Source of the DNA: a virus
Lineage: Duplodnaviria > Heunggongvirae > Uroviricota > Caudoviricetes
DNA length: 57,168 nucleotides
IMG/VR virus record: IMGVR_UViG_2537561944_000042
Strand: one strand, 5' to 3'
Positions 15,401-57,168 of this stretch are shown here, piece after piece. The first letter of the stretch is position 1; every line of letters begins with the position of its first letter. Made by a program: the position numbers and the translations under genes. The notes below the pieces were generated by a model. That model ran no database searches. It saw only the letters and a list, made by a program, of their open reading frames with translations, and had not been told where the DNA came from.

Positions 15401-15415
15401 TGGTGTCCCCTGCAG
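15401..15415 (-). other. candidate att core: 15-nt copy of a tRNA-Arg (argW-like) 3' end CTGCAGGGGACACCA
   Basis: Minus-strand 15-mer matches the 3' acceptor/T-stem end of E. coli tRNA-Arg(CCU) as recalled; no complete cloverleaf; lies 149 bp upstream of the integrase pseudogene start. Confidence 0.5.
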
Positions 15416-15488
15416 ACATCTACTTAGAGTGGCAGGGGATTGATTAGAATGGTATTTTTTAGATGTGAGAAATATTTTACCCGCTATT

Positions 15489-15689
15489 TTACCCATTAGC
15501 GCGGCTTAAGAGCTTATTTTTGAATTCACAATGGTCACGATATAACCATCTTGCTCGACCGTGGATAACTTTGGCTTTAGGCAGGTCGCCGGACTTAATC
15601 CGGTCGTAGATGAAGGTTTTACCAAAGCCAGTATCAGCCATGATGAATTTCAAATCAACCAGTGAATCAGGTTGTAGTTCGTGTTGCAT
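15489..15689 (-). CDS. torI: excisionase / AlpA-family DNA-binding protein (TorI-like)
   Basis: 66-aa ORF, ATG with GGAGA RBS; winged-helix pattern typical of AlpA/Xis family; at a prophage end next to the att core; symbol from memory of KplE1 TorI. Confidence 0.65.
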   Translation of the reverse strand: MQHELQPDSLVDLKFIMADTGFGKTFIYDRIKSGDLPKAKVIHGRARWLYRDHCEFKNKLLSRANG

Positions 15690-15708
15690 GAGTGCTATCT
15701 CCGAATAG

Positions 15709-15724
15709 GGAATCGAACCTGCAA
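15709..15724 (-). other. tRNA T-arm-like fragment TTGCAGGTTCGATTCC
   Basis: 16-nt match to the T-stem/loop of tRNA-Arg (argW-like) with no adjoining acceptor or anticodon arm. Confidence 0.35.
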
Positions 15725-54554: not shown

Positions 54555-54590
54555 AAGACCTATGTATTGAAATGATTACTTTGATCTGGT

Positions 54591-55766
54591 ATGTTTAAAA
54601 AAATCAGTAAAACACATTTTGATATGGAAAGAAAAACAAATAAGTTAGACTCTATTCAAGTCCTTAGAGGGATCGCGGTACTTCTAGTCATTGCGTTTCA
54701 CTTTAGAGTATATTTAAATGGAGTGTATGCCCAAAAGGACTTGGGCGACATTCTTTTTGGTATAGGTGAGGTTGGTGTTGATATATTCTTTGTTATAAGT
54801 GGATTTATCATTACTTATTCTTCAATGAATAAGGCAAAAAACCGGCCAATGGTGTTTGCTGCTAAGCGTTTTTTTAGGTTGTACCCTGTTTACTTTATAA
54901 TCCTTACTCTGGCTATATACCTCAACTATGAGGCAATATATACATCATCACAAATAATAAAGAGCTACTTGCTCATACCAATTGACTATAATTTTATAGG
55001 GCCATGGTCAGGTTATAGTATAATAATACCTGCATGGACACTAACGTATGAAATTTGGTTCTATGTGGTTTTCTTTTTTTCATTATGCATCAGCCATAAA
55101 TATAGAACTGCGATCGCATCATTTCTTCTCATCATTATTTGCGTTCTTGGTCAACTGTACTTTCACGGAGATGTTTTTCTAAATCCTATCGCGCAACCGC
55201 CATCTGGTGATGGAATTATTCGTAATCTGGTATTTGTATCAAATCCAATAATATATGACTTTATTTTGGGGATGATTATTGCAGAGGCCTACATTAGGCT
55301 ACCTTCTAGACTTATAAATAAAATGCCTGTTGTTCAATTTCTTAATATTACATTAGCGATTGCCTTGCTTTTTTTATGTCTAGGGTTAAGGAATGGACCT
55401 GGAATTGTAGCATGGGGGGCTTATTCATTTATGATTATAGCCCCAATAGTCCTTATTTCTAAGTGTAGGGATGTATATAGAAATAAAATTCTAACGTATG
55501 TTGGTGAAATATCCTATTCACTTTACATTAATCATATGGTTGTATACAGTCTTGCTGTTTTATATCTCAAACCGTACGGGGTATTGGATAGTAAAGGATT
55601 TGGTGTTTTTCTAGCTATGATTTGCGCTACTTTTATTATATCAATCATATCTTATAACTTTATTGAAAAACCATCAGTATCCATAGGGCATGCCATCGCT
55701 CGTAGAATGCAAAAAAAATCAGATGTATCTTCAATTAAAACTGAATCCGTTAGAGAAGCACCTTGA
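54591..55766 (+). CDS. acyltransferase-3 family membrane protein (O-antigen acetyltransferase-like lysogenic conversion gene); start may be the second ATG at 54624
   Basis: 391-aa polytopic membrane ORF; N-terminal ...VLRGIAVLLVIAFHF... typical of acyltransferase 3; AT-rich. Confidence 0.8.
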   Translation: MFKKISKTHFDMERKTNKLDSIQVLRGIAVLLVIAFHFRVYLNGVYAQKDLGDILFGIGEVGVDIFFVISGFIITYSSMNKAKNRPMVFAAKRFFRLYPVYFIILTLAIYLNYEAIYTSSQIIKSYLLIPIDYNFIGPWSGYSIIIPAWTLTYEIWFYVVFFFSLCISHKYRTAIASFLLIIICVLGQLYFHGDVFLNPIAQPPSGDGIIRNLVFVSNPIIYDFILGMIIAEAYIRLPSRLINKMPVVQFLNITLAIALLFLCLGLRNGPGIVAWGAYSFMIIAPIVLISKCRDVYRNKILTYVGEISYSLYINHMVVYSLAVLYLKPYGVLDSKGFGVFLAMICATFIISIISYNFIEKPSVSIGHAIARRMQKKSDVSSIKTESVREAP

Positions 55767-56010
55767 TAAATAGAGCAATAGCCAGATAGCACCTAACCGA
55801 TTTCGTACTCATAGGGTTGTCACTTTACCAAACTGAGAGGAAATACACTGATAACAGTTGGTTATGAAGTACTGGGTGAGGTGGATGTGAATGGTATTTT
55901 GATGCATTTCATTAACCTGTACGCCTAAGAAAGCAACCCTGAAATCTAAGACACACAAGCTTTGCACTGGATTGCAAGGCTTTGTGCACTTCGATAGTGG
56001 TTAAGGTGGT

Positions 56011-57168
56011 TCACTCCACCTTTTCATCAAGCCAGTCCGCCCACCATTGCATCATTTCTCTGCGCTTATCGAGATACTGAGCATGGTTGTAAATACCGCG
56101 CACAGATCCGCCGTTGGCATGTGCCAGTTGCACTTCAATAGCGTCAGCAGGCCATTCGTGCTCGTTCATAATCGTGCTGAATTCATGCCTGAATCCGTGA
56201 CCGCTTTCCAGACCCTCATAGCCGATTTGTTTGATCACAAGTAGCACCGCGTTCTCGCAGATTGGCTTCTTCTTATCGTTGCGCCCGGCAAAAACAAATT
56301 CTGATACTGGTTTGGTGATGGAGCTTAACGTAGTGAGAAGTTCAACCACCTGGTCCGACATCGGGACAACATGAATTTTGCGTCCCTTCATCACATTGGC
56401 GTCAATGGTGATAATCCTGTTTTCAAAATCGACGTTCTTCCATTGCATGGAACGAAGCTCTTTTGTTCTTAGGGCTGTGTAGCGTAAAACCTTGGTGGCA
56501 ATGAGCGATACGATACTTCCTGAAAATGTTGCCAGTGCTTTATTGAATGCCGGGATCTGGTCTGCAGGAAGAAACGGGAAGTTCTTCTTGCGGTATCCCC
56601 TCATGGCGTCAGCAAGGTCAGGTGCCGGGTTATATTTAGCCCTGCCGGTGACAATAGCGTAACGGAAAACCTCGCCGCATCTTCTGCGGGCTTTATTTGC
56701 TCGCTCCATTGCACCGCGATCTTCAAATCTGCGGATTACTTCCAGCAGTTGCATCGGCTCAATATCCTGAATTTCAAGGCCGCCGATGATAGGCAAAATG
56801 TCGTCATCAAACATTTTTGCAAGTTCAGTCGCATACCCTACTGACCATACTTGCTTCTTGTGCTCGTACCATTCCTTGTAAATCGCACTAAAGGAATTGT
56901 TGTTAGACGAAGCCTTTTTCGCCTTTACCGGATCGATGCCAACCGAGATGTCTTTCCTCGCAGTCCATGCCTTATCCCTTGCCTCCTGCAAAGTCATTAG
57001 CGGATATTTTCCGACGGTCAGGATTTTCTCCTTACCGTCAATCTTGTAGCGAAGCTGCCATACCTTTTTCCCGGATACAGGAACATAAAGGTACAGGCCA
57101 TTACCATCGAGAAGGCGGTATGGTTTTTCTTTCGGCTTTGCTGCTTCAATCTGCTTAACGGTGAGCAT
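56011..57168 (-). CDS. intS: P4-type tyrosine integrase, apparently intact (IntS-like); ATG sits exactly at the window edge
   Basis: 385-aa ORF; N-terminal MLTVKQIEAAKPKEKPYRLLDGNGLYLYV...; C-terminal catalytic region with HGFRHEF and YNHAQY; symbol from memory of E. coli CPS-53 IntS. Confidence 0.8.
   Translation of the reverse strand: MLTVKQIEAAKPKEKPYRLLDGNGLYLYVPVSGKKVWQLRYKIDGKEKILTVGKYPLMTLQEARDKAWTARKDISVGIDPVKAKKASSNNNSFSAIYKEWYEHKKQVWSVGYATELAKMFDDDILPIIGGLEIQDIEPMQLLEVIRRFEDRGAMERANKARRRCGEVFRYAIVTGRAKYNPAPDLADAMRGYRKKNFPFLPADQIPAFNKALATFSGSIVSLIATKVLRYTALRTKELRSMQWKNVDFENRIITIDANVMKGRKIHVVPMSDQVVELLTTLSSITKPVSEFVFAGRNDKKKPICENAVLLVIKQIGYEGLESGHGFRHEFSTIMNEHEWPADAIEVQLAHANGGSVRGIYNHAQYLDKRREMMQWWADWLDEKVE

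Follow-up and report, generated by a model that had tools for sequence, protein, structure and literature searches.

A mosaic P22-like prophage of the Sf6/HK620 virion subtype with a lambdoid early region, integrated at argW in Escherichia coli O26:H11

The stretch of viral DNA recorded as IMG/VR IMGVR_UViG_2537561944_000042 (57,168 nucleotides, referred to here as the window) carries, from position 15400 to its last base at 57168, what sequence comparison indicates is a mosaic prophage with a lambdoid early half and a P22-like late half. This element is almost certainly a complete temperate P22-like podovirus (Lederbergvirus, with a virion of the Sf6/HK620 subtype) integrated in argW of Shiga-toxin-producing Escherichia coli O26:H11. 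Its modules were typed by blastn and by per-protein tblastn against lambda, P22, Sf6 and HK620. The 13 genes of the Lederbergvirus/Sf6 virion (TerS, TerL, portal, scaffold, coat, gp4, gp10, needle, gp14, gp7, gp20, gp16 and, further along, the tailspike) are all present as colinear, full-length open reading frames (ORFs), and the terminase, portal, scaffold and coat proteins are 88-99.8% identical in amino acids (aa) to those of Sf6 while reaching at most 32% identity to P22, or none that is detectable. The early genes stand in lambdoid order (xis-ea-recombination-N-cI-cro-cII-replication-nin-Q-lysis). Membership in Lambdavirus is not supported, as neither blastn nor tblastn gave a lambda match outside the ea, nin, Q and lysis segments. 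From xis to int the gene order is colinear with both Sf6 and HK620, and no function is duplicated.

The closest relative varies by segment, among lambda, P22, Sf6, HK620 and phages encoding Shiga toxin 1 (Stx1). Window positions 31657-34159 (ninF-Q-pR'-tR') align with lambda 42297-44805 at 96.3% nucleotide identity, 34819-35964 (S, R and the start of Rz) with lambda 45063-46235 at 89.8%, and 37958-48871 (TerS to the middle of gene 20) with Sf6 1-10911 at 97.0%; the match to P22 gene 16 stands at 68.8% in nucleotides and 74% in amino acids. A prior sequence-only reading had proposed a mosaic of lambda-type, P22-type and Sf6-type modules, and the per-gene comparison with the four phages bears this out. 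Alignment to a single known phage without module exchange, which would have told against that proposal, was not found, and neither half of the element is covered to 80% or more by any isolated phage. Mosaicism of this kind is the norm among P22-like phages, and lambda-like nin, Q and lysis segments in P22-like prophages are textbook; the patchwork of lambda-, P22-, Sf6-, HK620- and Stx1-phage-like segments reflects the homologous and illegitimate exchanges that commonly occur between lambdoid phages.

The limits of the element are set by a single flanking pair of att cores, both perfect. The 16-bp core ATGGTGTCCCCTGCAG has one match within the window, at 15400-15415 (+) (0.04 chance matches expected), and this xis-proximal junction is where the start coordinate of the sequence-only reading, 15401, falls. 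The core is identical to the annotated attP core of Sf6 (Sf6 18099-18114) and is the reverse complement of the argW 3' end, and in nucleotide comparison the phage arm to its right is a 97% match to the attP arm of Sf6 and HK620. The partner core, the 3' end of argW (tRNA-Arg), lies 162 bp past the end of the window, as read in strain 11368, whose prophage is ~99.99% identical; the second att site had been rightly placed outside the window. In the reference genomes argW sits 161 bp upstream of the start codon of an intS-type integrase, and that start codon is exactly where the window ends; a tRNA scan of the window found no tRNA genes, argW itself lying just outside. Each junction retains one half of the Sf6 attP arms, and the halves are complementary. 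In the Sf6 and HK620 records the attP core lies between int and a TorI-like xis, whereas in lambda and P22 attP is downstream of int. Because attP of the Sf6 type lies between int and xis, and because the protein is 99% identical to Sf6 Int, the IntS-type integrase at 56011-57168 (-) (99.0% to Sf6 Int, 98.4% to HK620 Int) is the prophage's own. Its partner at the opposite end is an excisionase of the TorI/HkaC type (15489-15689, -), 100% identical in amino acids to the TorI-like proteins of Sf6 and HK620. The integration module is thus of the IntS type, with a tyrosine integrase, the core ATGGTGTCCCCTGCAG between int and xis, and the argW 3' end as target. The prophage order is argW/att - int - acyltransferase - tailspike - late genes - Q - nin - replication - cro/cI - N - erf - ea - xis - att; the window presents it reversed, with the xis-proximal core at 15400-15415 and the argW core beyond the right end. 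Excision would be predicted to restore attP as GCGAACTGATAA-ATGGTGTCCCCTGCAG-ACATCTACTT, the int-proximal arm joined to the xis-proximal arm. The phage genome measures 41,930 bp, or ~40.67 kb without an IS600 insertion described below. That the right-end integrase belongs to the prophage, and that the other att core stands at the start coordinate, had not been part of the sequence-only reading. Assignment of this integrase to a neighbouring element, suggested by a tailspike-conversion gene-int order that resembles a vegetative junction, was dropped once the Sf6 and HK620 annotations had placed attP between int and xis and both cores were found.

The left flank of the prophage (window 1-15.4 kb) is a 100% match to E. 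coli O26 chromosomes. A second tyrosine integrase gene (14035-15252) adjoins the att core there and heads a decayed argW island (window 1-15399) that contains ISCro1/ISEc22 of the IS66 family, a frameshifted IS3, a PapB-like regulator and a 786-aa protein with an HsdR N-terminal domain (8942-11302). This gene was also considered as the integrase of the prophage and rejected, since its position is beyond the att core, its identity to IntS is 48% and its reading frame is broken by an internal stop. With an integrase pseudogene and a decayed island beside the att core, the prophage therefore sits in tandem with an older argW element. This second integrase gene, together with the differing closest relatives of the early and late halves, might be taken as a sign of two neighbouring prophages in the interval, or of a lambda-like prophage that an artefact of assembly or recombination has joined to a P22-like remnant. 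Such a composite origin is highly improbable, however, as the pseudogene falls outside the only pair of att cores, each lambdoid function is present in a single copy in an order colinear with Sf6 and HK620, and the element forms one continuous alignment whose structure recurs in ~70 independently closed genomes.

Within the single complete prophage, the virion genes follow Sf6 for most of their length. The small and large terminase genes (37958-39792, +) are of the Sf6 type (TerS 87.9%, TerL 99.6%), as had been proposed for the small subunit, and TerS is 88% identical to that of HK620 also. The portal, scaffold and coat genes (39795-44102, +) are 98.6-99.8% identical to those of Sf6 at equal lengths, and the block of gp6-like, gp4, gp10, knob-type tail needle and gp14 genes (44145-47517, +) is 97.9-100% identical. 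An expected P22-like N-terminus of the tail needle was not confirmed: the needle is of the Sf6 type throughout, 97.9% identical to Sf6 gp9 over 282 aa and of Sf6 length, and resemblance to P22 gp26 is limited to the first 137 aa, at 59%. The ejection proteins gp7, gp20 and gp16, located by tblastn (47520-51472, +), had been assigned as a trio to P22, and this is correct for gp16 (74% to P22 over 99% of its length, against 34% to Sf6) but not for gp7 (99.1% to Sf6) or the first half of gp20, which are of the Sf6 type. The gp20 protein is a chimera, with aa 1-270 at 83% to Sf6 and a remainder that finds no match in the four references except for its last 24 aa (59% to P22); a mosaic junction thus lies inside gene 20, where the Sf6-like block (97% in nucleotides) stops at 48871. 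Since gp16 and gp20 must match in order to function (PMC10883804), this pair was presumably exchanged as a unit. All structural genes are present and uninterrupted, as the sequence-only reading stated, each having either the length of its Sf6 counterpart or a full-length ORF. Upstream of the terminase, annotation places Rha-family, Gp49-family and DUF2560 genes (36359-37878, +), of which the DUF2560 protein is 100% identical to Sf6 and HK620 and the Gp49-family protein 74% identical to Sf6.

The lambda-type portion of the mosaic is centred on nin, Q and lysis. The nin region (29634-33243, +), delimited by tblastn and by the lambda block, comprises DUF7301, NinB, NinE, a 133-aa ORF, NinF, NinG, NinH and NinI. 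Identity to lambda is 94.6% for NinE, 86.8% for NinF, 93.6% for NinG, 100% for NinH and 95.0% for NinI, and these proteins are also 87-100% identical to Sf6; the 133-aa ORF is an extra gene between NinE and NinF, and NinB is of the HK620 type (97%, as against 38% to lambda). The late antiterminator Q (33240-33863, +) is of the lambda type at 99.5% aa identity, and is followed by a lambda-type pR', qut, 6S leader and tR' (33864-34159, +) that aligns with lambda 44509-44805; the pR'-6S-tR' leader differs from lambda by a handful of substitutions, whereas those of HK620 and P22 diverge after the promoter. The tR'-S interval is where Stx phages carry stx. Here its 660 bp (34160-34818) show a match to HK620 that begins at 34218, and the only ORFs in them are short (60-112 aa) and unannotated. 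The lysis cassette (34936-36153, +, by tblastn) encodes S holin, R endolysin, Rz and an embedded Rz1 (35915-36100) whose ORF is intact, with the lipobox VSAC. S and R are 99.1% and 98.7% identical to lambda, and both are ~99% identical to Sf6 and HK620 too. The proposed nearness of Q, S, R, NinE-I and the pR'/tR' leader to lambda accordingly stands, at 87-100%, but a lambda-type Rz/Rz1 pair does not, Rz being 97.2% identical to Sf6, 91.0% to P22 and 58.6% to lambda.

The early region draws on a wider set of relatives. The recombination module (20771-22075, -), identified by tblastn and PHROGs, encodes Abc2, a protein resembling the C-terminus of a single-strand DNA binding protein (SSB), and Erf. 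Abc2 is 94-97% identical to its counterparts in P22, Sf6 and HK620, the 127-aa ORF of the module matches phrog_44 (single-strand DNA binding protein), and Erf does belong to the P22 type that had been predicted for it, aligning end to end with P22 Erf at 74.1% identity, as against 29% for Sf6; HK620 and lambda have no counterpart. The pL operon also includes kil, an ORF that may be cIII, a gp17-like gene for superinfection exclusion and small ORFs (22086-23604, -, by tblastn and annotation), Kil being 100% identical to Sf6 and the gp17-like protein 85.4% identical to P22. At the sieB position lies an HkaP-like gene (23805-24299, +) whose product is 99.4% identical to HkaP of HK620, a putative superinfection exclusion protein according to its annotation. 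An antiterminator N of the HK620/phage 21 type and HkaQ (24330-24967, -) are 97.8% and 100% identical to HK620. The immunity region contains candidate OL operators of the ATAAC-N-GTTAT type (25161-25246), recognized as repeats shared with the cI-cro intergenic region, and candidate OR operators (26451-26536) in the form of three palindromic ATAAC..GTTAT sites. Between them, at 25401-26445 (-), are the CI repressor, with Pfam HTH_3 and Peptidase_S24 domains (E = 1.4e-17), and a 98-aa ORF. The latter (25401-25697, -) follows cI directly, where lambda has rexAB, matches phrog_18389 and is likely to be expressed in the lysogen. For CI and Cro, none of lambda, P22, Sf6 and HK620 provides the closest type. 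CI is 100% identical to that of Stx1a_10051, an O26 Stx1a phage, and 98.3% identical to that of SH2026Stx1; the CI of other O26 Stx1a phages is 84% identical. The cro and cII genes (26557-27169, +) encode a Cro with Pfam YdaS_toxin and P22_Cro helix-turn-helix (HTH) matches and a cII that is 88-92% identical to P22 C1 and to the cII of Sf6 and HK620. The replication module (27205-29547, +) is of the P22 gene 18/12 type, with a helicase 89.7% identical to P22 gp12 and an initiator 50% identical to P22 gp18.

The non-essential ea region (15747-20770, -) was delimited from the RefSeq annotation of 11368 and RM8426 and gives patchy matches to lambda, Sf6, HK620 and P22. Among its contents are truncated pseudogenes of ead/Ea22-like and DUF2737 type and a DUF551 gene that IS600 interrupts; the two or three pseudogenes of the early region lie within it. 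The IS600 (IS3 family) insertion itself (17239-18501, -) is a strain-specific segment of 1263 bp that 11368 and RM8426 lack at this site; matching genomes carry it under the annotation IS3-like element IS600 family transposase. In RM8426 a different IS3-family element, of 1310 bp, has inserted between rha and the gp49-family gene. The P22-type replication genes, HK620-type N, Stx1-phage-type immunity, IS600 and early-region pseudogenes had all gone unmentioned in the sequence-only reading.

At the far end of the late genes, host recognition and putative conversion functions are found. The tailspike gene (52431-54554, +) encodes a head-binding domain and an O26-specific beta-helix receptor domain, recognized by Pfam as Head_binding (PF09008, aa 1-113, E = 2e-67) and Beta_helix (PF13229). 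A P22-family N-terminus had been anticipated and is present, at 90% to HK620 and 60% to P22, and the head-binding domain is the only part shared with the references. Among isolated phages the only relative of the receptor domain is phage N7, at 58% aa identity. At the DNA level the tailspike gene is identical to its coding sequence (CDS) in 11368, whose protein accession, WP_001280420.1, corresponds to I3U_RS19900 of RM10386. When grafted onto phage CBA120, the I3U_RS19900 protein conferred O26 specificity on the chimeric phage (PMC12737597), and Lederbergvirus prophage receptor-binding proteins of O26 strains have already been catalogued (PMC10408124). Being O26-specific, the tailspike directs the phage to the very serogroup to which its host belongs. 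Between the tailspike and int, in the position of Sf6 oac, is an acyltransferase gene (54624-55766, +; Acyl_transf_3, PF01757, E = 9e-29), a candidate conversion gene whose product would probably modify the O-antigen of the lysogen; tblastn detected no similarity between its product and Sf6 Oac. Divergent from the tailspike gene, without arc or ant (52043-52430), is a gene for an Mnt-family repressor (52043-52309, -). The suggestion that Mnt follows P22 is right as to family, given the Pfam Arc and Repressor_Mnt domains, but not as to closeness, the protein being a distant homologue at 47.4% identity to P22 Mnt. In comparison with P22, the prophage has no arc, ant or sieA. The sieA position, between gene 16 and mnt, is occupied by a gene for a 161-aa predicted lipoprotein (51487-51972, -) that begins MKKSLLIIPFLLVGC, has a signal peptide with an LVGC lipobox, belongs to phrog_6067 and differs from the 11368 copy in one signal-peptide residue. 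It gave no Pfam or PADLOC match, and in PHROGs only a function-unknown family; it may be an exclusion or moron gene. A PADLOC scan of ten unknown ORFs, including this lipoprotein and the 98-aa ORF, returned no defence systems, and PHROGs placed the unknown ORFs in function-unknown families only, except for the one SSB-like match. A scan for promoters and terminators around mnt, the tailspike and the acyltransferase gave matches no commoner than in shuffled sequence.

By homology to lambda, P22 and Sf6, a model of the life cycle may be constructed in which a LexA-like CI would shut off pL and pR through the ATAAC..GTTAT operators, and SOS-induced self-cleavage of CI would release N-antiterminated early transcription. 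The gp18/gp12-type module of P22 would then replicate the genome, and lambda-type Q would read through tR' into the lambda-type S and R and the Sf6/P22-type Rz/Rz1. Late transcription would extend into the Sf6-type cluster for headful packaging and for a T=7 head and short tail, and the tailspike would bind the O26 O-antigen. The essential lytic genes are uninterrupted, both att sites are intact, and the repressor has both HTH and Peptidase_S24 domains. With every essential gene, Int, Xis and the two cores intact, inducibility of the prophage is plausible.

Several points nevertheless weigh against a fully competent phage. With IS600 the genome is 41.9 kb, larger than those of Sf6, HK620 and CUS-3 (38.3-40.2 kb); as is known from P22 packaging, a headful-packaging phage needs terminal redundancy, and the enlargement may reduce it. 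Several genes at the early left end are pseudogenes, though in the non-essential ea region. Conservation in ~70 clonal genomes is vertical inheritance and not necessarily a sign of function, and the acyltransferase has no detectable similarity to Sf6 Oac. It is conceivable, though unlikely, that the element is a cryptic, domesticated remnant, complete in appearance but no longer able to excise or to produce infectious virions, and retained solely on account of the genes for conversion and exclusion that it carries (the acyltransferase, lipoprotein, gp17-like and HkaP-like genes). Its vertical stability, its tandem position beside an island whose integrase is a pseudogene, the ea-region pseudogenes, and the independent landings of IS600 here and of the 1310-bp element in RM8426 are in keeping with such domestication. 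However, the insertions lie in non-essential regions, and every gene known to be essential to P22 or Sf6 is a full-length ORF 74-100% identical to a functional phage gene. Sf6 and HK620 are viable phages, and their Int and Xis proteins are 99-100% identical to those found here; neither att core has a flaw, and Kapi1, an argW-integrated relative, is described as an isolated temperate phage (PMC8787464). IS600 and the pseudogenes are confined to the ea region, and the balance favours a complete temperate phage.

How this temperate phage relates to the four references can be stated module by module. Sf6 (Lederbergvirus Sf6, NC_005344) shares argW, the 16-bp core and the placement of attP, as well as Int (99%), Xis (100%), TerS through gp7 (88-100% aa), the knob-type needle, S/R/Rz/Rz1 (97-100%) and NinG-NinI (96-100%). 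However, Sf6 has a phage 21-type Q with tRNAs where the element has a lambda-type Q, it lacks the mnt and lipoprotein genes found here between gene 16 and the tailspike, and it differs in cI/cro, N, replication, Erf, the C-terminal half of gp20, gp16, the tailspike receptor domain and the conversion gene. HK620 (NC_002730) shares att, int and xis, N, HkaP, HkaQ and NinB (97-100%), Q (99%), S/R (99-100%), TerL through gp10 (98-99%) and the tailspike head-binding domain (90%), but has Sak4/SSB recombination, roi/rusA in nin, a short P22-type needle, its own gp20 and gp16, an O18A1-type tailspike body and another cI. P22 (NC_002371) is alike in overall gene order, in Erf (74%), Abc2 (94%), gp17 (85%), gp12 (90%), gp16 (74%) and Rz (91%), in Mnt family membership and in the tailspike N-terminal domain; it is unlike in its terminase, portal, scaffold and coat (32% or undetectable), in targeting thrW, and in possessing arc/ant/sieA and gtrABC, all absent from the element. 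Lambda (NC_001416) shares ninE-ninI, Q, pR'/qut/6S/tR', S and R (87-100% aa), whereas its structural, cos, int/att, immunity, O/P and red genes are missing here and Rz is at 59%.

The prophage is not confined to one strain. Window positions 32200-57168 are 100% identical in ~70 closed O26 genomes, including those of the enterohaemorrhagic (EHEC) O26:H11 reference strain 11368 and of RM10386. Against the copy in 11368 (NC_013361, 3264204-3306134) there are three single-base differences in 39.7 kb (~99.99%), plus the extra IS600 here; the 11368 copy has matching flanks, with argW on one side and the decayed island on the other, and lacks IS600 at 17239-18501. Of the 58 annotated CDSs of 11368 that were checked, 57 recur unchanged in the window; the remaining one has a single-residue difference. 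The element has thus already been sequenced and annotated and is an ordinary member of Lederbergvirus, so that the mosaic reading holds without being novel; searches of the literature for this O26 prophage under a name of its own returned tailspike-focused papers only. Beyond these chromosomal copies, the Stx1a-converting phage Stx1a_10051 (LC744178) has 12.1 kb in common with the prophage at 100% (16255-17238) and 99.98% (18502-29617), a stretch that covers ea genes, erf, N, cI/cro and replication, and its next two nin blocks (within 30463-32576) are at 99.3% and 94%. Identity at this level implies that a P22-like prophage and a Stx1 phage would have recombined recently in O26.

For practical purposes, the analysis provides exact prophage boundaries and explains the layout of int and att at argW, and it ties the tailspike of the window to an experimentally validated O26 receptor-binding protein, which is useful for the detection of Shiga toxin-producing E. 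coli and for phage engineering. Two further proposals are offered as tentative and, on balance, doubtful: that the prophage serves as a resident donor of early modules to co-resident Stx phages in O26:H11, the immunity and induction control of Stx1a_10051, given the 12.1 kb in common, then being those of the podovirus prophage, and, separately, that the acyltransferase O-acetylates the O26 antigen, an uncharacterised seroconversion. The near-identity of the early regions to those of a Stx1a phage bears on the diversification of Stx phage regulation in O26 and, if the proposed donation is true, exchange with the prophage could alter Stx1 phage induction and toxin output.

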